The notes under the pieces: generated by a model
What the model was told of the DNA's origin: nothing
Seen by the model: only the letters and a program-made list of their open reading frames with translations
Databases searched by the model: none
In this document: positions 1 to 13,952 of the stretch, in pieces
How positions within the stretch are numbered: position 1 is the first letter of the stretch
How the letters are laid out: every line of letters starts with the position of its first letter
Position numbers and translations under genes: made by a program
Assembly (NCBI GenBank): GCA_965207225.1
Contig: CBDBLV010000004.1
Location: forward strand, 224,001-288,000
Reading direction: 5' to 3'
From: Dehalococcoidia bacterium
Lineage (GTDB): Bacteria; Chloroflexota; Dehalococcoidia; Plut-88900
DNA: 64,000 nt

Positions 1-5
1 TGAGA

Positions 6-575
6 GTGTTAGCCACGATAAGAAGACCGGGACTGAAGTGGGTCCTACTGCTGGCCTTAGTCGGAACCGTGGCCCTGGCCTGCTCCACCGGGACGTATCC
101 CGTTGACGTCTTCACGGAGATGCACTACCAGCAGTCTTACCGGTCGCAGGAGCCGCCTCGAGTCATGCCGGCGGAAGGGGCAGTGCCGTTTACGGATGAG
201 TCGATGCCCGTCCGGCCACCGGAGCCCGCTTCCCAAGCCGAAGTGCTGGTAATGGCTAACCCCGTAGAGCCTACGGCCGACAACCTGATCCGTGGACAGC
301 AGGTGTTCACCCGCAACTGCTCGATGTGCCACGGGGTCACCGGCGAGAGCGACAGCTTCATATCCGTGACCTTCACGTCCATGGACATCAAGCCCCCCGC
401 GAACTTCGCCGAGGCGGGATCGGTCACTCAAGACGGCAGCTCTGACGGCCTTGCCTTCTGGATCATCTCCGATGGTCTCGGGAACATGCCAGCCTTCCGA
501 CACCTCCTGTCCTACGAGGACCGGTGGGGCGTCATCCACTATCTGCGTCTTATTGCACAACAGGCCGGACAATAG
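6..575 (+). CDS. Monoheme cytochrome c lipoprotein, ActE-like (alternative complex III subunit E family)
   Basis: Lipobox ALAC; MHYQQSYRSQEP segment resembling the ActE N-terminus; CSMCH heme motif; distal GNMPAF. The rest of its operon probably lies left of the window. Confidence 0.7.
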   Translation: MLATIRRPGLKWVLLLALVGTVALACSTGTYPVDVFTEMHYQQSYRSQEPPRVMPAEGAVPFTDESMPVRPPEPASQAEVLVMANPVEPTADNLIRGQQVFTRNCSMCHGVTGESDSFISVTFTSMDIKPPANFAEAGSVTQDGSSDGLAFWIISDGLGNMPAFRHLLSYEDRWGVIHYLRLIAQQAGQ

Positions 576-580
576 GGCTT

Positions 581-1144
581 ATGTCCCGTGCGCAGGGAGC
601 GCATCCATCCCGCGCTCCGCTCCCGACCCCAAGCGGCGCTAAGCACCACCTTTCGTTCTTCGCGGCGGTGTTTCTTTCCTTACTCATGGGTCTTGCTGCA
701 TTCGGCTGTGCCGCCGAAACCCTCACCATCGAAGAGAGGGCCCAGGCAATCGACCAACGGTTGATGTGCCCCGTTTGTCCCGCCGAGACCATCGACCAGT
801 CCCAAGCCGACGTTGCTATTCAGATGCGAGAGCTTGTGCGGGAAAAGCTCCGGGCTGGCGAAACCGAAGACCAGATATACGACTTCTTCGTGGAACGTTA
901 CGACAAGGGCGTCCTCGCCGAGCCTCCGGCTGAGGGTTTCAATCTTCTCGTCTGGGTGATTCCGCCCATGGCCCTTGCCCTTGGAGTGGCGTTGGTGTGG
1001 TTTGGGATCAAGCACCTGGGACGGTCTGAACCCCAGCGCATGTCGTCACACGGGGACTGGGAGGCGGAATCCGAGCGTTACCTTCGTGAAGTGAATGAGG
1101 AGTTCGAGGCCTTCAGGGGGGCGTCGGGGGCCTCGGGGCAATAG
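581..1144 (+). CDS. ccmH: Cytochrome c maturation thiol-oxidoreductase CcmH
   Basis: LMCPVC motif, QMRELVREKL...ERY...VLAEPP, C-terminal TM helix. Start placed at ATG 581, just after the upstream stop. Confidence 0.9.
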   Translation: MSRAQGAHPSRAPLPTPSGAKHHLSFFAAVFLSLLMGLAAFGCAAETLTIEERAQAIDQRLMCPVCPAETIDQSQADVAIQMRELVREKLRAGETEDQIYDFFVERYDKGVLAEPPAEGFNLLVWVIPPMALALGVALVWFGIKHLGRSEPQRMSSHGDWEAESERYLREVNEEFEAFRGASGASGQ

Positions 1145-1159: not shown

Positions 1160-3160
1160 TTGGCCGAGCTGGGCACCCTTTCACTGTTCTCTGCGCTGGC
1201 GCTGGCGTTGTATGCGTGCGTTGGCTCGATAATCGGCGTTCGCAGAAACCTGCCCGAGCTGGTAACCAGCGCACGGTACAGCGCCTATTTGACGCCGCTC
1301 CCCGTTATCGTTTCCGTGATGGCGCTGGTCGGTGCGTTCCTATCCCGGGACTTCGACATCAAGTATGTCGCCGAGCACAGCAATGCAGCGATGTCTCGGG
1401 CCTACTCCTGGGTGGCCTTCTATGCAGGGAATGAAGGCTCGATCCTGTTCCTTGCCGCCGCCTTCGCTATATCGGCCGCAATCGCCCTGTCCCTCGCTCC
1501 TCGGCTGCACCAAGCCAGCCTTGCCTATACCTGCGCCGTGATAACAGGCGTTCTGACCTTCTTCCTCGCCGTCCTTGTATTTCTCGCAAACCCCTTCGAA
1601 GTTACCGCCGTATCGGTCCCCGACGGGAGGGGAATGAACCCGCTCCTCACTCACCCTGGCATGTTCGCCCATCCGCCGATGCTGATGACGGGGCTGGTCA
1701 CCGTAACTATCCCTTTCGCCTTTGCAATGGGGTCGCTGCTGGCGGGGAGGACGGGGGACGAGTGGGTGGACACGGGCAGGACGTGGGCACTGGTCTCGTG
1801 GAGCATACTCGGGGCGGGGCTGCTGTTGGGCGGCTGGTGGGCATACACGATTTTGGGGTGGGGTGGGTTCTGGGCATGGGACCCGGTGGAAAACGCCGGA
1901 TTCATGCCCTGGCTGGCGCTAACCGCCTTTGTCCATTCAATCATGGTCCAGAAACGGAGGGGCATGTTCAGGGTGTGGAACATAGCGCTGATCAACGTCG
2001 CCTTCTCCTCGTCATTGCTGGGCATGTTCATCAATCGCGGAGGTCCGACGCCCTCGGTGCACTCCTTCGCCGAGTCGGTGCTCGGGTGGGTGTTCCTGGG
2101 ATTCATGGTGGTCACTGCACTGTTCTCCTTCGGTGTCTTGTTCCGGCGCATGGGTAATCTTCGCAACGCCCAGCGTCTCGAGTCGAAGCTGTCCCGGGAA
2201 TCGGCATTCCTGGTGAACAACCTGCTCTTCCTGGCCATCGCCTTCGTCATCATCTGGGGACAGGTCTTCCCGGTGCTTTCGGATACAGTAACCGGCGTCA
2301 CGATAACCGTGGGCGAGCCTTTCTATAACCAGGTGAACGGGCCTTTGCTGTTGGCGGTGGTCTTCCTGATGGGAATCGGGCCGTTGGTGCCGTGGCGTAG
2401 GGGATCTTTAGGCCAGCTTCGCAGGGCGCTCCTCCTGCCCTTTGTCATCGCCCTAGCAGTGGCCCTTGTTCTTATCGGATTGGGCATAACCAAGGCATTT
2501 CCGCTGCTGGCAGTCGGCCTGTCCGTTGCGGTGGCAGTGGGGATATTCAGGGAGTGGTATCGGGGCACTAGGGCCCGACACCGCAGCGGCGAGGCGTACC
2601 CTTTAGCTTTCGCACGGCTGATCTCAGCGAACCGACCTAGATACGGGGGCTACGTGGTCCACCTAGCCGTAGTAATGATGGCCCTGGCGATAGTCGGGAC
2701 GTATTTCTTCGAAACCCAGCGAGACGTACGCCTCGCCCCGGGCGAAACGGCGGAGGTGTCGGACTACAGCATCACTTACATAGAGAGCGAGCAACGAGAC
2801 TTCCCGGATAGGGCGCAGAGAATAGCCACTGTTGAGTTTTTCGATGAGGACGGCAAGTCGCTCGGTCTATTCAGACCGGAGCAGTCCTTCTATCCCGCCT
2901 TCAACCTTCGCCCCGCCCGTGCAGCCATCCACTCCACGCCGTTGGAAGACGTATACGTCATCCCCAACGACTTCTTCCCGGATGGGACGGTGGGGTTCCG
3001 CATCCTGGTGAACCCGCTGGTTATGTGGATGTGGATTGCGGGCCCGGTCATGGTGCTGGGCACTTTGATCGCCCTGTGGCCGGCTAGGCAGAGGGCTCGG
3101 GCGCCGGCGTCCATCGCAATGCCTCCCGTGACCCGGGCCTACGTACCTGCGGCCGAGTGA
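1160..3160 (+). CDS. ccmF: Heme lyase CcmF/NrfE
   Basis: WGGFWAWDPVEN (WWD domain); conserved His in FAHPP, FVHS, SVHSF and VVHLA; multi-pass membrane protein. Confidence 0.96.
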   Translation: MAELGTLSLFSALALALYACVGSIIGVRRNLPELVTSARYSAYLTPLPVIVSVMALVGAFLSRDFDIKYVAEHSNAAMSRAYSWVAFYAGNEGSILFLAAAFAISAAIALSLAPRLHQASLAYTCAVITGVLTFFLAVLVFLANPFEVTAVSVPDGRGMNPLLTHPGMFAHPPMLMTGLVTVTIPFAFAMGSLLAGRTGDEWVDTGRTWALVSWSILGAGLLLGGWWAYTILGWGGFWAWDPVENAGFMPWLALTAFVHSIMVQKRRGMFRVWNIALINVAFSSSLLGMFINRGGPTPSVHSFAESVLGWVFLGFMVVTALFSFGVLFRRMGNLRNAQRLESKLSRESAFLVNNLLFLAIAFVIIWGQVFPVLSDTVTGVTITVGEPFYNQVNGPLLLAVVFLMGIGPLVPWRRGSLGQLRRALLLPFVIALAVALVLIGLGITKAFPLLAVGLSVAVAVGIFREWYRGTRARHRSGEAYPLAFARLISANRPRYGGYVVHLAVVMMALAIVGTYFFETQRDVRLAPGETAEVSDYSITYIESEQRDFPDRAQRIATVEFFDEDGKSLGLFRPEQSFYPAFNLRPARAAIHSTPLEDVYVIPNDFFPDGTVGFRILVNPLVMWMWIAGPVMVLGTLIALWPARQRARAPASIAMPPVTRAYVPAAE

Positions 3161-3173
3161 CGAGGGCAGGCTC

Positions 3174-3653
3174 ATGGTTATTGCAATCGGCGTTCTCATT
3201 GCCCTGGTATGCCTGGGGGTAGCTGCGGCGCCTTTCATGAAGTACCGGCGGTCTCGTCAGACCGTGGACCCAACAGAGGTAGTAGCGGGGCTGGAGGGGC
3301 AACGCCAGCAGATTTACCGGGAAATGTTGACGTTGGCAGAGGGGTATCGGGCGGGGTCTGTACCGGAACCCGAATTCAACTCTGTAAGCGAAACTCTGAG
3401 AAGGCGGGCCGCTGAGAACTTATGGCTCCAGCGCCGGTGGGAAGAGAGGCTTGCGGATCTGGACGAGGCGCTGGAAGCTATCATCTCCCAAGTGGGCTTT
3501 ACCGCGCATGGGCAGACAGGCGATGAGAAGGAGTCATTAGACCCTTGCCCGGAGTGCGGGGCTCGGCTGTCAGTAGATGCCACCACTTGCCTGCAGTGCG
3601 GAACAGAGCGGGATAGCGCCCGACCTGTGTCGGGGGGGAGGGCTTCGAATTGA
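3174..3653 (+). CDS. CcmI-like membrane-anchored protein with C-terminal zinc ribbon
   Basis: N-terminal TM, helical segment resembling the CcmI N-terminus, CPECG...CLQCG; directly downstream of ccmF. Confidence 0.6.
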   Translation: MVIAIGVLIALVCLGVAAAPFMKYRRSRQTVDPTEVVAGLEGQRQQIYREMLTLAEGYRAGSVPEPEFNSVSETLRRRAAENLWLQRRWEERLADLDEALEAIISQVGFTAHGQTGDEKESLDPCPECGARLSVDATTCLQCGTERDSARPVSGGRASN

Positions 3654-4867
3654 CCGTTGACCGGTTTAGGCGCCCTCTTCTGGTCCTCTCCTTCGCCATC
3701 GCGATGTTCCTTCTCGCTGCAATGCCCGCCTGGGCCGACGATCACGAGATCAGCGGTCGGGTCATCAACCTGACCCCCGATGCCGACCCCCCTGCCGGAC
3801 TTCAGGTCGTATTGACAATCTTCGAAGGCACTGAACCCATTGGACAGCTCGCTACAACCACCGACGAAAACGGCTCCTTTATCTTTGGAGAGATTCCCAG
3901 GCTGGCGGGGCTGGGATACTTATTCCAACTCCAGTATCAGGGCGCTCAGTACAGGTTCCAGCTTGATCCCGGGGCAACGATTCCAGTACAAATCGCCATA
4001 TACGAACCGACCTCGGAGCTGTCATCCCTGTCGGTTCTGGACGATACGATCATGGTGACCCGGGAGCCGGGGCAATACGAGCAGCTGACCGTGCGGCAGG
4101 TCGTCCGGGTGCGCAACGAGACTCTTGAGACTTTCGTACCTTCCTTCGGGGACGCCGGCGCCGGGATGATGAATTTCCTCCGGATCTCAATGCCTGCCGG
4201 ATTCCGGGAAATGACCGTCAGGAGCGATCTGCAGGGAGGGCAGGTTATCCCCGTGGACAGGGGTGTGGGAATAACCACGGCAATTCCCCCGGGGATTCAC
4301 GCCATCGTCTTTGCCTATGCTGCTCCATACGACCAGTCCGACCTGATTTTTGAACCGCTTTATCCGCTGGGCGCGGACTCGGTGCGGGTGCTTGTGCGGG
4401 AGGACGTAGGCCAATTGATAGGGCCGGATATCCGGGAGGAGGAGTCTGTGATCGTCTCCGGGAGCAACTTCCGCGTTTACAGCGTCGAAGAAGTTACGGC
4501 GGGAGACAGGGTAAGTCTAGGGTTCACCGACCTTCCCCAAGCCCCCTGGACCACAACCCTGGCCGACGCGTTTACAGCGGAGTGGCAGATCACGGCGGTG
4601 ATTCCCGGTGTCACCGCCTTGCTCTTGCTGCTATTTCTCGCTTATGCGTGGAGGCTGCAAAAGAGAGATCCGCGCCCCGTCGATCCTGCGGTGTTCCTCG
4701 AAAACGTCCAGAGCCAGCCCGACCAGATGGAACTGGTGGAGAGGATTGCCGAGCTTGACGGGCGTCGGGAGAGGGGTGAAGTATCGGAGGAGGACTACAC
4801 GCAGCGCAGGACGCTTCTGAAGCGCAGCCTGCTCTCGCGTGCACTTAGGAGCGCGTCCTCGGCCTGA
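3650..4867 (+). CDS. Exported, membrane-anchored beta-rich protein (ccm accessory)
   Basis: Signal peptide (AWA), ISGRVIN...TTTDENGSFIF beta-sandwich start, C-terminal TM plus IAELD...EEDYTQRR tail; 4-nt overlap with the upstream gene. Confidence 0.65.
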   Translation: MTVDRFRRPLLVLSFAIAMFLLAAMPAWADDHEISGRVINLTPDADPPAGLQVVLTIFEGTEPIGQLATTTDENGSFIFGEIPRLAGLGYLFQLQYQGAQYRFQLDPGATIPVQIAIYEPTSELSSLSVLDDTIMVTREPGQYEQLTVRQVVRVRNETLETFVPSFGDAGAGMMNFLRISMPAGFREMTVRSDLQGGQVIPVDRGVGITTAIPPGIHAIVFAYAAPYDQSDLIFEPLYPLGADSVRVLVREDVGQLIGPDIREEESVIVSGSNFRVYSVEEVTAGDRVSLGFTDLPQAPWTTTLADAFTAEWQITAVIPGVTALLLLLFLAYAWRLQKRDPRPVDPAVFLENVQSQPDQMELVERIAELDGRRERGEVSEEDYTQRRTLLKRSLLSRALRSASSA

Positions 4868-9790: not shown

Positions 9791-10258
9791 TCAGTTGGAA
9801 TCCTGTTCCGTTACGGGGATATATTGACGGGACTCCCGGGTGATGATGCTGGTGGCGTGAAACAGGTTGTCGGGCTCCAGGCTGCCTTCGAGGACTACCT
9901 CCACGGAAGGGACGTCGAACTGGCCGGGGGGTACACCTGCAAAGAGCACTTCCAAGGGTTCGCCTGACTTGGTCTCGGTGTCAAGGATTTGGAAGGTAAC
10001 GTCCTCCTGGTCGCCGTACACTATTGATCCCGGGACGATAATTCCGCTCACGGTGATTTCCTGCCCGTAAATCTCTGCGCCCCTGTCATGCACCTCGCTG
10101 ACGTCCAGGAAAGCTTTTCCGACGTTGAAGGCTATCAGCGAGATGATGGTAGCCAGGGCAATGAGCAGGACTATTCCACCCAGGATGGTCTTCTTGCGGG
10201 GGGAGAGCCAAGGGGTGTAGGCCTCGATGGCGGGATCGGGTCGGGAATCGGTGACCAT
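9791..10258 (-). CDS. ccmE: Heme chaperone CcmE (atypical ExxxY motif)
   Basis: N-terminal TM, ITVSGIIVPGSI, GVPPGQF...VVLEG, FHATSIITRESRQY; last gene of the ccmABCD operon. Confidence 0.85.
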   Translation of the reverse strand: MVTDSRPDPAIEAYTPWLSPRKKTILGGIVLLIALATIISLIAFNVGKAFLDVSEVHDRGAEIYGQEITVSGIIVPGSIVYGDQEDVTFQILDTETKSGEPLEVLFAGVPPGQFDVPSVEVVLEGSLEPDNLFHATSIITRESRQYIPVTEQDSN

Positions 10259-10261
10259 TGG

Positions 10262-10414
10262 CTAATCTTCCGTCTCGGGACTGCGGCTTCGGTGGATCTC
10301 CTCTACCTCCTGCCCTACGCGCGCCACCCGACGATAGATCCAGTAGGCGAGACCCATGAATACGGCCCACCCAATGGCGAACCCGGCAAAGAGATATCCG
10401 AAATTGTCTTCCAT
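10262..10414 (-). CDS. ccmD: Heme exporter protein CcmD (50 aa, not in ORF track)
   Basis: Hand translation MEDNFGYLFAGFAIGWAVFMGLAYWIYRRVARVGQEVEEIHRSRSPETED: one TM plus charged tail, between ccmC and ccmE, preceded by an AAGGA SD. Confidence 0.85.
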   Translation of the reverse strand: MEDNFGYLFAGFAIGWAVFMGLAYWIYRRVARVGQEVEEIHRSRSPETED

Positions 10415-10423
10415 AGCGTCCTT

Positions 10424-11128
10424 CTAGTCTGGAACAATTCTAGCTACGGTTTCCTCGCTACTCCTAAGCATAACCCTAACTTTCAGTAATACGAAGAAAA
10501 GCAGTGTGAAGGTGAACAGGCTGAACATCAGGGTGGTGTACATCTCGGAACTGAGGAACGATTCCTCCCCACCCCCGATTATCGGCTCCACGTGGACCGT
10601 GTCCCAGAGATATACGGACAGGTAGTTGATGGGGACAACCACAAACCCCAGGATTCCCACCGCGGCCCGTAGCCGGGACGACTTCTCCGCGGACTCCGAG
10701 TACGCGCCGACCATGAGGTAGCCGACGTAGATGAGCCAGAGCAGGGCGGTGGTGGTGAGTCGGGCGTCCCAGGTCCACCAGACCCCGAAAATCGGCTTGG
10801 CCCAGATTATGCCCGAGACAATGGTCACAGACGTGAACACGACGCCCAGCTCGGCGCTGGAGTAGGCCCACCTGTCCCATCTGCCGCTTCGCTTTCTCAG
10901 GTGCAGGACGCTGAAAATGAAGACCAGGAAGAAGGCGAGGTAGGCGATCCAGGCCACGGGGAGATGCAGGTAGAAGATACGCTGGACGTTCCCCTGGTTG
11001 ACCTCCTCGGGCACCCAGAGGAATATCAGGTAGAAATTGACGACCATGAGGACGGTAGTGATGGCGAAGAGGCCATCCATCCAACCAAATCTACGTCCGC
11101 CCGATCGTGCGCCTAGCGTACTTGCCAT
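10424..11128 (-). CDS. ccmC: Heme exporter/chaperone CcmC
   Basis: RIFYLHLP, KPIFGVWWTWDARLT (WWD motif), WDTVH. Confidence 0.95.
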   Translation of the reverse strand: MASTLGARSGGRRFGWMDGLFAITTVLMVVNFYLIFLWVPEEVNQGNVQRIFYLHLPVAWIAYLAFFLVFIFSVLHLRKRSGRWDRWAYSSAELGVVFTSVTIVSGIIWAKPIFGVWWTWDARLTTTALLWLIYVGYLMVGAYSESAEKSSRLRAAVGILGFVVVPINYLSVYLWDTVHVEPIIGGGEESFLSSEMYTTLMFSLFTFTLLFFVLLKVRVMLRSSEETVARIVPD

Positions 11129-11137
11129 ACCAGTTGT

Positions 11138-11809
11138 CTATTCCTCCAGAACGTGCTCGAAGGTCAGGAACCCTACTACCAGAAAGACTATATCGAAGAT
11201 GATGAGGACGTAAATCCACGGCTGGACCGCCGACCAGCCGGCGCCGTCAAAGGCGTCGCCCGTGGATTCCACCGCCCCTATGACCGCGGGCACTACCAGG
11301 GGAATCATGAGCACGGGGAGCATCACCTCGCGGAGTCGGGTGTTCATGGAGAGCGCCGACAGGAAGGTGCCCACGATGGCGATGCCAAGGGTGGCGACCG
11401 GGACTATGAGGATGAGTTGAATGGGGATTGCGGAGAGGTTGAAAACCACGGCGAAAATGGGGATGGCTATGGTCTCGACTATCATGACGAATACGAAGCT
11501 GCTGATGGTCTTGGCGATGAAAATGACGTCCCGTCCGTAAGGGCAGAGCATCAGGCCGTCCAGGCAGCCGTTCTCCTGCTCGGAGTTGACTACACGCTGA
11601 AAGCTGAGCATCCCGGCAAAGAGGAACGTAAACCAGAGGACGCCGGGGGTCATAATCTCGTTGGGAATGGACCCGGGCCTGAAGGCGAAGTTGAAGGTGA
11701 AGACCATGAGCAGGACGAAGAAGGTGACCGCTAGTACGACCTCCTTGCCCCGCACTTCGACGAGGAGGTCCTTCTTCACGATGGCCGCTATGGCCCTCCA
11801 GTAGTTCAT
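11138..11809 (-). CDS. ccmB: Heme exporter membrane subunit CcmB
   Basis: KKDLLVEVR, PGVLW, EQENGCLDGLML, REVMLPVLMIPL. Confidence 0.93.
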   Translation of the reverse strand: MNYWRAIAAIVKKDLLVEVRGKEVVLAVTFFVLLMVFTFNFAFRPGSIPNEIMTPGVLWFTFLFAGMLSFQRVVNSEQENGCLDGLMLCPYGRDVIFIAKTISSFVFVMIVETIAIPIFAVVFNLSAIPIQLILIVPVATLGIAIVGTFLSALSMNTRLREVMLPVLMIPLVVPAVIGAVESTGDAFDGAGWSAVQPWIYVLIIFDIVFLVVGFLTFEHVLEE

Positions 11810-11819
11810 GCTCTAATTC

Positions 11820-12539
11820 TCAGCCGACAGCCAGGGCCTCGTACCGGTAGTCCAAGGCCTCTCGATCAAGATTCTCCAATCCCGAGTCCATTGTTACCCG
11901 GCCCCGCTTCAAGAATATGGCCCGGTCGGCGATGGCAAGACCGTTGTCGAGGTTATGGGTGGACATGACGATGGTCCGGGCCTGACTCTTGCAGAAATCG
12001 AAGAGGAGGTCGAGCGCGTTCCTGTCAAGGCCCGAGTCGGGTTCGTCCAGGAGAAGTATGCCGGGGTCGTGGAGGACGGCCCTGAGCAGGGCGACCCGCT
12101 TTCTTTGTCCGTGGGAGAGGGAGTCGACCCTTTTTTCAAGCAGGTCGGTCAGTTCCAGCTGCTCAGCAAGGGTATGTATCCTATCGTCGTGAGAGGGTAC
12201 ACGGAACATCCTGGCGTAGAAACGGAGGTTTTCGGCGGCGGTAAGGCGGCCGTAGAGGAGGGGCTCGTGGAGGACGACGCCCATAGCAGACCGGATGGAG
12301 GCGTCATGCTTCAGGGCATCGAGGCCGTGGACGAATAGCTCGCCGGAGGTGGGTTTGATCAGGGTTGCCAGCAGCTTTATGAGGGTGGTCTTGCCGGACC
12401 CATTAGGCCCAACCAGGAGAACCTTTTCTCCCGGATAAATGGTGAGGTCCAGTCCCGCAATGGCTTTGACGCGTCCATAGTTGCGGGTGAGGCGTCGGGC
12501 CTGGATGGCGGGAGGATATTCGTTACCGTTGGAGGGCAT
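11820..12539 (-). CDS. ccmA: Heme exporter ATP-binding subunit CcmA
   Basis: GPNGSGKTT Walker A, LSHGQ signature, LLLDEP Walker B. ATG 12539 chosen because it lies downstream of the predicted promoter. Confidence 0.9.
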   Translation of the reverse strand: MPSNGNEYPPAIQARRLTRNYGRVKAIAGLDLTIYPGEKVLLVGPNGSGKTTLIKLLATLIKPTSGELFVHGLDALKHDASIRSAMGVVLHEPLLYGRLTAAENLRFYARMFRVPSHDDRIHTLAEQLELTDLLEKRVDSLSHGQRKRVALLRAVLHDPGILLLDEPDSGLDRNALDLLFDFCKSQARTIVMSTHNLDNGLAIADRAIFLKRGRVTMDSGLENLDREALDYRYEALAVG

Positions 12540-12541
12540 GG

Positions 12542-12596
12542 TTGTGATGCGCGTCACTAACGTAACAATGATAGATGTTCCACAATCGGGATTCAA
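12542..12596 (-). promoter_or_regulatory. Sigma70-type promoter of ccmABCDE with downstream Rex/CRP-like operator
   Basis: Minus strand TTGAAT(12591-12596)-17 bp-TATCAT(12568-12573); imperfect palindrome TTGTGA-TGCGCG-TCACTA at 12542-12559. Confidence 0.6.
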
Positions 12597-12894: not shown

Positions 12895-12921
12895 GGGAAG
12901 GGGAGGCCCTCCGCCCCACAG

Positions 12922-13042
12922 GGGAACCCTCTCCCCCTTGATCCCCCTCTCCCTCAGGGCCATTGAGGGAGAGGGGGAGAGAAGAACAGAGGCAAGGGCC
13001 TGCGCCCTGGCGCAGGCCCTTGCCTCTAGTTCAATACTGGGG
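12922..13042. repeat. Two-hairpin palindromic element, copy A
   Basis: GGGAACCCTCTCCCCCTT...CCCCCTCTCCCT...AGGGAGAGGGG...AAGAAC-AGAGGCA-[11-bp stem]-TGCCTCT-AGTTCAATACTGGGG. Confidence 0.9.
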
Positions 13043-13631
13043 AAGAGGGAGGAGTTGTTCGGTTGTGGGGTTTGGGTTTGCATTTTTCTGTTTTGGAGGG
13101 GACAGGCGATGGAGGTCCGGGACTCGGATGCAGGATCTCGATGGCACCTACGCTGACGCTTGGGGCATCGGCGGCTGTCCTGCCTTTCCCTTCACGCATG
13201 CCTTGGGAGACTTGCCGCTGTCGAGGGCGTCTCTGCGTGGGGACATCCGCTCTCCGCATCAACGCTCGACCGCTGAGCGGGACGGCATATCGGCTCGAAG
13301 CCGCCGTGGGCGGAAGGAGCCGCATAAGGGCGCTAAGGCCCTGCATAACGAGTCAGAAGACTCGCGGAATTCCTCGACGAGGGTAAGGTCGGCGAGGCGT
13401 ATACGCCCGGGTGAGGGACGTCGTATCGGCAAGGGCGTCGACAGAGAGGCCTGATGCCGCATAGAGTCGATGGACCATCCATCGCCTGGAAGCCAGGGAA
13501 GGGGCACGGGACCCGTGGTGAGGAGATAATACCTTCAGCTTGAGCCTCGGGCCTGCGCGAGGGCCGTTGGGATGGGCTAGGGCGTTGAGTCCTCCGGGTC
13601 GGGTCTCGGGGGCTTCCCCGGGTTTTTGGTT

Positions 13632-13710: not shown

Positions 13711-13742
13711 GGCTTTTGGGAGAATGTCCCCCGGCCCCCCAA

Positions 13743-13887
13743 GGGAACCCTCTCCCCCTTTATCCCCCTCTCCCCCGTATCGGGGTACGGGGGAGGCTCT
13801 TAGGGCCAAAAAGGGAGAGGGGAAGAGAAGAACAGAGGCAGACGTGGGTGCGCTGCACCCACGTCTGCCTCTAGTTCAGTACTGGGG
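13743..13887. repeat. Two-hairpin palindromic element, copy B (with nested CCCCGTA...TACGGGG mini-hairpin)
   Basis: Direct repeat of 12922-13042 with a different but perfectly paired 11-bp inner stem and a ~27-bp insertion in the first loop. Confidence 0.9.
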
Positions 13888-13952
13888 GGAAGAAAGGACC
13901 CCACCAACCCCTCGGAAGCAATATGAGTCCCACCCACCCGCCCTGTTTTATT

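Follow-up and report, generated by a model that had tools for sequence, protein, structure and literature searches.

Ever since holo-CcmE was described, it has been debated why System I of cytochrome c maturation (Ccm) binds heme covalently to its chaperone CcmE and how the bond is formed and broken again. The debate is touched by a ccmE gene found in a stretch of 64,000 nt from a Dehalococcoidia bacterium of the Chloroflexota (positions 224,001 to 288,000 of contig CBDBLV010000004.1, assembly GCA_965207225.1; hereafter the window), whose product carries a glutamate at the place of the His or Cys to which heme is attached. Can such a protein still carry heme, and by which chemistry? Sequence comparison suggests that the product of the gene is most likely a functional CcmE of a type not yet described, the third for this heme chaperone.

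A glutamate at the heme-attachment site of CcmE

The gene and the codons on which the argument turns are as follows.

9791-10258, minus strand: ccmE (155 aa; PF03100), with an N-terminal membrane anchor, an oligonucleotide/oligosaccharide-binding (OB) barrel and a short flexible tail
9923-9925, minus strand: codon of Gly112, at the place of E. coli CcmE Asp101 ('PPGQF' against 'VPDxF')
9857-9859, minus strand: codon CAC of His134, in 'FHATS', not conserved
9809-9841, minus strand: residues 140-150 (TRESRQYIPVT), the tail motif, more conserved than any other part of CcmE in its clade
9833-9835, minus strand: codon GAG of Glu142, which takes the position of His130 in E. coli and of the Cys in System I*
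9821-9823, minus strand: codon TAT of Tyr146, equivalent of the E. coli heme-iron ligand Tyr134

Profile, fold, operon position and tyrosine make the window protein a member of the CcmE family, and it lacks the defining residue of either described class. Pfam CcmE matches it with 55.8 bits (E 6.4e-15, cut-off 24.6), and six NCBIfam CcmE equivalogs (NF009727 and others) match as well, all under their curated cut-offs (best 54.1 bits vs 126). The 155-aa product of the open reading frame (ORF) ends in ...LFHATSIITRESRQYIPVTEQDSN, and a phmmer search against chains of the Protein Data Bank (PDB) aligned ATSIITRESRQYIPV with E. coli CcmE AKEVLAKHDENYTPP (8ce8_E, 1sr3_A). Because this alignment is free of gaps, Glu142 is placed on His130 and Tyr146 on Tyr134, which bears out the first-pass annotation of this DNA in its reading of a Glu where the heme-binding His or Cys would stand, with the Tyr kept at +4. 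An AlphaFold2 (AF2) model built on a 56-row alignment (A3), in which Tyr146 is invariant, has a mean predicted local distance difference test score (pLDDT) of 84, with a membrane helix at residues 20-45 and a barrel whose last strand stops at Arg141. Glu142 directly follows this strand, and the tail from 142 to 155 is of low confidence in the model. The top PDB matches of the model in Foldseek were the CcmE chains 8ce8_E, 1lm0, 1sr3, 1j6q and 2kct.

In the genome collection used, the order to which the window belongs in the Genome Taxonomy Database (GTDB) has a single family of 4 genera, with 12 species genomes including its own, and comprises uncultured, apparently aerobic Dehalococcoidia. 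The tail TRESRxYxPxT is the same in 12/12 of these genomes. Moreover, when 5.8 billion proteins were searched, TRESR[QKR]Y was found in 17 of 19 homologues (57-98% identity); the two without the motif are a C-terminally truncated fragment (P0017) and a chimera of ccmD and a partial ccmE (P0019), and the named records are metagenome-assembled genomes of an uncultured 'Dehalococcoidia bacterium' or 'Chloroflexota bacterium'. The codon of Glu142 is GAG in 11 of the 12 genomes and GAA in 1, that of Tyr146 is TAT or TAC, and the two neighbouring arginines are written with several codons across the order (Arg141: CGG/AGG/AGA/CGC; Arg144: CGT/CGG/CGA/CGC/AGG). In the 16-row clade alignment (A2), 11 of the 14 positions at 137-150 are invariant, against 49/155 for the whole of CcmE. 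Pairwise dN/dS, the ratio of nonsynonymous to synonymous substitution rates by the Nei-Gojobori method (NG86), is 0.10 in the median and at most 0.37 over the 61 pairs with usable dS, values that are rough since dS is often above 1. Together these comparisons indicate that the replacement of Cys by Glu at the covalent heme site is real, selected and order-wide, and ExxxY, as the first-pass annotation had asked, is a conserved clade, with Cys at the site only outside the order. The explanation that the Glu stems from an error of sequencing or assembly, from a mutation private to this genome or from a pseudogene thus keeps a negligible chance: twelve separate assemblies and metagenome proteins from four sources (ena, lgn, jgi, ncbi) share the motif, and the ccmE frame is intact and under purifying selection. 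As for the chimera P0019, it is an ORF at L018 883-1350 (G002:C1), directly upstream of the ccmE of that genome, and reads as ccmD, the first ~45 residues of ccmE and a ccmD-like part again; it seems to have arisen by a partial, local duplication in a single species of its genus.

With neither His nor Cys at position 142, another residue could in principle have taken over. No Cys occurs in any CcmE of the clade, and the clade alignment holds no His position common to all members. The candidates for a substitute are His134 of 'FHATS', which most members have, 8 residues upstream of Glu142, and His57. At position 134, however, one genome of the order (G010, L024) has Gln and P0009 has Tyr, and position 57 varies between His and Gln. 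P0009 itself, representing 6 member sequences and sharing 77% identity with the window protein, is without any His or Cys. His134 is also predicted by the model to sit within the last barrel strand, outside the flexible tail, and the same column varies in Cys-type relatives too (Q, E, H, R, Y). Because functional-looking orthologues do without this His, covalent attachment through His134 or His57 is very improbable, and the upstream His of the 'FH' pair, put forward in the first-pass annotation as a possible attachment residue, is excluded as a shared mechanism.

Ancestry among Cys-type CcmE proteins

The residue that Glu142 replaced was sought with a profile of the clade, run against 1.84 billion representatives of 50%-identity clusters. 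This search returned 737 proteins at E <=0.001, with a single one at E <=1e-30, the clade's own cluster P0020. Among the best 150 of the 737 matches, 129 have Cys in the column of Glu142, 4 have His, 1 has Glu (the own cluster) and 1 has Arg, and 15 are unaligned there. Closer by, CcmE was found in 15 and CcmH in 13 of 29 genomes sampled from other families of the class, and the main CcmE copies of these class relatives have K-C-P-S-K-Y-like tails, with one exception of the form H-x-x-x-M. In a maximum-likelihood tree of 96 rows the 13 Glu-type rows form one branch with a support of 99 in the Shimodaira-Hasegawa-like approximate likelihood-ratio test (SH-aLRT), inside a poorly resolved set of Cys-type proteins. 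The tree was made by a quick method with the tail columns kept in; its representatives were P0020-P0089 of 110-200 aa together with four of the aligner's His-column rows, and four rows (the chimera, the truncated copy, a three-domain protein and a paralog) were left out.

Since the clade is one branch among Cys-type CcmE, Glu replaced Cys. The comparison thus indicates that the Glu type is monophyletic and derived from the Cys type (a System I*-like CPSKY form, accompanied here by CcmH), and not from the His type, the tail having changed from an ancestral K-C-P-S-K-Y to R-E-S-R-x-Y. A change from Cys (TGY) to Glu (GAR) takes three base changes, and the path therefore ran through intermediates; none between Cys and Glu at this site was seen in the sequences compared.

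Other departures from CxxxY came to light among the relatives. P0028, P0107, P0083 and L030 (G019:C334:16833-17081) are CcmE-fold proteins of ~130 aa whose tails lack CxxxY and end instead in a c-type heme motif (…SLCTLCH, …FCAICHG, …SLCAICH; CGNLCH in P0083), and in G019 the protein of L030 is a second copy beside a CPSKY CcmE. Further odd tails in the class are found in P0064, P0065, L013 (G016:C4:14604-14888) and L028 (G038:C55:11186-11485); they comprise Q-C-P-S-K-M, with Met for the Tyr ligand, T-R-H-P-D-T-M, a His type with Met, and K-C-P-T-K-W, with Trp for Tyr. L020 (G020:C17:28205-28972) is a single frame of 305 aa with three consecutive PF03100 matches, apparently a triple-domain CcmE, and ends in K-C-A-S-K-Y.

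The Ccm genes, their clients and the CcmC-CcmE pair

The partners with which this CcmE would have to work are encoded in the same window, in two groups.

3-575, plus strand: monoheme c-type cytochrome, gene start just upstream of the window (PF13442, PF00034; one CxxCH after a hydrophobic N-terminus)
524-1144, plus strand: ccmH, motif LMCPVC (PF03918, E 9.8e-30)
1160-3160, plus strand: ccmF, 666 aa (PF16327, PF01578)
10262-10414, minus strand: probable ccmD, 50 aa, one membrane helix (by position between ccmC and ccmE, size and sequence; no Pfam or NCBIfam match)
10424-11128, minus strand: ccmC, 234 aa (PF01578, E 2.2e-32; TIGR01191, E 8.9e-37)
10766-10789, minus strand: CcmC WWD motif FGVWWTWD, with Phe114 as its first Trp position (E. 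coli Trp119)
11138-11809, minus strand: ccmB (PF03379, E 2.2e-32)
11820-12596, minus strand: ccmA, ATP-binding cassette (ABC) ATPase, start codon uncertain (PF00005, E 2.6e-32; TIGR01189, E 6.3e-35)

The translation of CcmA shows a Walker A (GPNGSGKT) and a Walker B (LLLDEP) motif. Against E. coli CcmC (7f02_C), His55 of the window's CcmC falls on His60, His179 on His184 and FGVWWTWD on WGTWWVWD; against T. thermophilus CcmF (6zmq_A, E 1.5e-108), CcmF keeps its WWD motif (WGGFWAWDPVEN) as well as four His sites (AHPP, FVHS, SVHS, VVHL). By these matches a System I set of CcmA, B, C, D, E, F and H is present with the heme-handling His residues of CcmC and CcmF, CcmD being assigned by position and size. 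The first-pass annotation had taken CcmA-D and the His and WWD motifs of CcmC and CcmF to be intact, and this stands for all the His residues, for the WWD motif of CcmF and for most of that of CcmC, the first Trp of which is a Phe. Its mention of a c-type cytochrome encoded nearby was correct too (3-575).

The Phe is one of a series of changes specific to the clade. We counted clade-specific replacements by comparing ingroup with outgroup at positions conserved in the outgroup; the outgroup sets differ between proteins and the samples are non-independent, and the resulting fractions serve as a guide only. CcmE has 5 real replacements at about 19 positions (Y50F, Y106F, D112G, C142E and S144R), CcmC has 8/89, several of them radical, and CcmF has 17/345, mostly conservative. 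The first WWD Trp of CcmC is Phe114 in 15/16 of the ingroup, whereas it is Trp in 31/31 of the outgroup and in E. coli; Trp also stands there in 13/13 CcmC sequences of class relatives (12 genomes whose main CcmE is Cys-type, G016 left out). Further clade-specific changes in CcmC are R141G, D164V, V168N and P180V. On the side of CcmE, Gly112 is invariant in the clade, and 116 of 149 other representatives have Asp there ('PDxF' motif). In E. coli, according to PMC6204919, CcmE Asp101, Arg73 and Glu105 contact CcmC Asp47, Gln50 and Arg55, and a triple CcmE mutant gave no holo-CcmE. The pattern indicates that the changes are concentrated in the heme-loading pair CcmC-CcmE rather than in CcmF. A structure prediction of CcmC, CcmD, heme and CcmE as one complex scored 0.45, the best control scoring 0.00; the runs share at least 68% of their contacts, and the partner pLDDT is at least 70. 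Of 157 solved complexes 116 attain the mark applied, as do 2 of 215 mismatched pairs, and scores of <=0.60 take in 18 of the 157 and both mismatches; this points weakly to a complex, and since a like complex has been solved (8ce8), the pass may reflect memory of the known structure.

Clients for the pathway are several. Just upstream of the window, the first gene of an Alternative Complex III-like operon (L064 3975-10922; G000:C4:215975-222922, G000 being the window's own genome) encodes a membrane-anchored pentaheme ActA-like protein; it is followed by the genes of a molybdopterin-type subunit and a 4Fe-4S subunit, and the rest of the operon comprises a 479-aa ORF without a Pfam match, an NrfD-like subunit and ActD. 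In addition, a CoxII protein fused to two cytochrome c domains adjoins COX1 (a caa3-type oxidase), and the own genome encodes several monoheme cytochromes. Across the order, CcmH is found in 12/12 genomes, each of which has 3-6 cytochrome c (PF13442) matches. A gene for a luciferase-like monooxygenase lies between the Alternative Complex III-like operon and the window's cytochrome c-ccmH-ccmF genes. Elsewhere in the genome, two contigs hold near-identical multiheme cytochrome genes together with a neighbouring gene (G000:C2:148479-149920 and G000:C3:347937-348791); the C3 copy ends in a contig-edge region and looks broken, and it may be an assembly duplicate, which fits the contamination estimate of 8.3%.

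The search for another CcmE or another maturation system came out empty. The own genome (4.03 Mb) has a single PF03100 match, and tblastn with 10 Cys- or His-type CcmE proteins found in it no remnant of another ccmE and matched only the known locus; the second canonical ccmE that the first-pass annotation proposed to look for was thus not found. A motif scan of the genome did give 'KCPSKY' and 'TCPSKY', in open frames of 14 and 24 aa, which were judged to be chance because tblastn shows no CcmE similarity there. PF01578 matches CcmC and CcmF only, ResB of System II was found neither in the own genome nor in any of the 12 genomes of the order, and a CcdA-like DsbD_TM (PF02683) gene has one match (G000:C4:402193-402699, 37.8 bits). 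The lineage thus appears to respire with c-type cytochromes made by this Ccm system alone.

These data also bear on the possibility that CcmE has degenerated, carries no heme and stays as a structural subunit of a CcmABCD(E) complex, with heme going straight from CcmC to CcmF or taking a route not yet recognised. CcmE has neither of the known covalent residues, the Asp that contacts CcmC is lost, and the Pfam scores are 52-62 bits compared with 76-109 for the main copies of Cys-type class relatives, all of which would suit a protein relieved of its task. A scaffold role would not, however, constrain a disordered tail, and the tail, with the iron-ligand Tyr among its invariant positions, is the most conserved part of the protein. 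A dN/dS of about 0.1 also argues against decay, as does the retention of the trait across 4 genera that have client cytochromes and in which no other system was found. We consider a degenerate chaperone improbable.

Some neighbours of the Ccm genes deserve mention. Directly after ccmF, 3174-3653 encodes a protein of 159 aa that has a single helix at its N-terminus and a zinc ribbon at its C-terminus, and 3650-4867 a 405-aa secreted or anchored protein with a weak SHOCT match; the two may be accessory ccm genes. Between ccmA and a gene for a CoA-binding protein (14160) lie two copies of a ~150-nt element, 12907-13053 and 13728-13898, which are 82-89% identical in pieces and hold an internal CCTCTCCCCC/GGGAGAGGGG hairpin. 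The region 12900-13060 has 149 blastn matches at E <1e-5 on several contigs of the own genome and is thus a high-copy dispersed small repeat; an Rfam scan of the 1.5-kb gap upstream of ccmA, repeat element included, gave no match. In the CcmC of one Cys-type relative (L071, G019:C40:7550-8380), 'YLMVP' stands for the usual 'Y[FL]H[VL]P', with Met at the first axial His (E. coli His60).

Heme handling by the Glu-type CcmE and its place among known systems

Because the tail became R-E-S-R-x-Y, no His or Cys is available for a covalent heme bond, and we consider it quite likely that the clade has a functional CcmE which handles heme without such a bond. How this would be done can be proposed in outline. 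CcmCD would take heme to the WWD site of CcmC, which appears remodelled in the clade, and ferric heme would then be bound non-covalently by the flexible tail of CcmE with Tyr146 as iron ligand. Glu142, one helical turn off (i-4), could be a hydrogen-bond partner of the tyrosinate or a second ligand, and Arg141 and Arg144, the new flanking arginines (K141R, S144R), may hold the heme propionates. The loaded CcmE would be released by CcmAB and taken by CcmF and CcmH, where reduction by the b-heme of CcmF would weaken the Tyr-Fe bond, and the freed heme would be joined to the CxxCH of apocytochromes. Tyrosinate heme carriers are known and offer an analogy to the CcmE tail. In E. coli holo-CcmE the heme iron is ligated by Tyr134 (PMC6204919). 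The particular division of labour, with ligation by Tyr146, support by Glu142 and the arginines on the propionates, is offered tentatively, as a mechanism with a little less than an even chance.

The carboxylate could equally form an ester. Glu142 would then make a transient heme ester, by vinyl addition or at an oxidised methyl, in place of the His-vinyl or Cys-thioether bond, and CcmF/H would resolve it on transfer. The Glu is at the exact covalent position, directly after the last barrel strand, and is invariant, and the machinery presumed to make and break the bond has been kept (the axial His residues of CcmC, the CcmAB ATPase and the b-heme His residues of CcmF). Moreover, the neighbouring residues changed as well (P to S, S to R) and the step from Cys to Glu takes several base changes, which suggests a rebuilt reactive site and not a simple loss. 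Glu- and Asp-heme esters exist in other enzymes, the mammalian peroxidases and CYP4 enzymes. These known esters, however, need peroxide-driven autocatalysis at heme methyls, and to our knowledge no carboxylate-vinyl heme adduct is known in any heme chaperone, both of which speak against an ester here. In their accessible parts, PMC3601427, PMC9084895 and PMC6204919 likewise name no such adduct. A Glu-heme ester is on balance unlikely but credible, and its fuller form, in which the CcmE of the order would carry a reversible ester made in the remodelled WWD site of CcmC as a third covalent bond between heme and chaperone, is rather unlikely.

Several points weigh against a working non-covalent CcmE as well. 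E. coli CcmE H130A cannot hold heme covalently (PMC6204919), and C120A of M. acetivorans gave neither holo-CcmE nor holo-cytochrome c (PMC9084895); judged by these results, the pathway does not normally survive the loss of the covalent residue. A search for sequencing runs listed 23, with no RNA run among them. The roles suggested for Glu142, Arg141 and Arg144 draw on sequence and on analogy with tyrosinate heme carriers, in a tail modelled at low confidence. The own genome is 92% complete, so that another system is 'not found' rather than proven absent, though it was not found in any of the 12 genomes. The stem branch of the clade (1.33) is not far above the median end branch (0.84), and CcmC W174L, at first taken for a clade-specific change, was dropped since it is shared by 5 Cys-type class relatives (G019, G022, G025, G028, G039). 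Accelerated evolution of CcmE was considered from the stem length and from Pfam and TIGR scores of CcmE and CcmC that are below those of class relatives; being suggestive and not clearly exceptional, it is not claimed.

If heme is carried non-covalently by the Glu-type CcmE, the covalent intermediate is dispensable; if the ester is true, the heme chemistry is new and oxygen-based attachment of heme would be open to System I. That His can be dispensed with was already clear from the Cys variant (System I*), and a natural CcmE without His or Cys is a ready test of whether a covalent heme bond is needed. The paired changes, Asp to Gly in CcmE and Trp to Phe in the CcmC WWD motif, point to residues for swapping. 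For annotation, caution is advised, as the label 'CcmE' does not imply a His or Cys adduct.

In the reviews consulted, only the His and the Cys type of CcmE are described, and the Glu type appears to be undescribed. In its accessible part, PMC3601427 lists as the sole variant of CcmE the Cys of System I*, with CPSKY as the usual motif, a few Tyr-to-Phe cases and Chloroflexi among the carriers, and PMC9084895 (2022) gives bacterial CcmE as HXXXY or CXXXY. Full-text searches of the main text of freely available articles named no Glu-type CcmE in the entries and passages covered. The suggestion of the first-pass annotation that this is a possibly undescribed System I variant is accordingly supported, its relatives being without C or H at the site and no second ccmE having been found.

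The nearest relative in sequence is the System I* CcmE (Cys, CPSKY/CXXXY), known from Desulfovibrio desulfuricans, D. vulgaris (PDB 2kct), Methanosarcina acetivorans and many Chloroflexota, with which the clade shares a short tail, the Tyr at +4 and a transmembrane anchor with an OB barrel. It differs from it in Glu for Cys, in R-E-S-R-Q for K-C-P-S-K, in Gly for the Asp of 'PDxF' and, in the partner CcmC, in Phe for the first WWD Trp; because Cys is replaced by Glu, a heme thioether is impossible in the clade. System I* was defined as lacking CcmH (Allen et al. 2006, as given in PMC3601427), whereas all 12 genomes of the order have CcmH, a feature they share with about a third of Cys-type bacteria (PMC3601427). 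With the canonical System I CcmE (HXXXY; E. coli, PDB 1sr3 and 8ce8; Shewanella, 1j6q and 1lm0) the clade has in common the fold, the position in ccmABCDE, the Tyr ligand and the presence of CcmF and CcmH, and differs in having Glu at the place of His130 and a much shorter tail after the Tyr. The E. coli residues Arg73, Asp101 and Glu105, to which CcmC contacts are ascribed in PMC6204919, align with Tyr, Gly and Val.

The closest parallel in the laboratory is the E. coli mutant H130A, which like the clade CcmE is without a covalent heme-attachment residue. CcmE(H130A) still joins CcmCD and heme still gets to the WWD site (PMC12077264), and the mutant protein binds heme non-covalently in vitro (PMC6204919). 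The mutant is a dead-end mimic of a 'pre-adduct', whereas the Glu form is fixed by selection in a lineage that depends on c-type cytochromes, together with what would be compensating changes in the tail and in CcmC.

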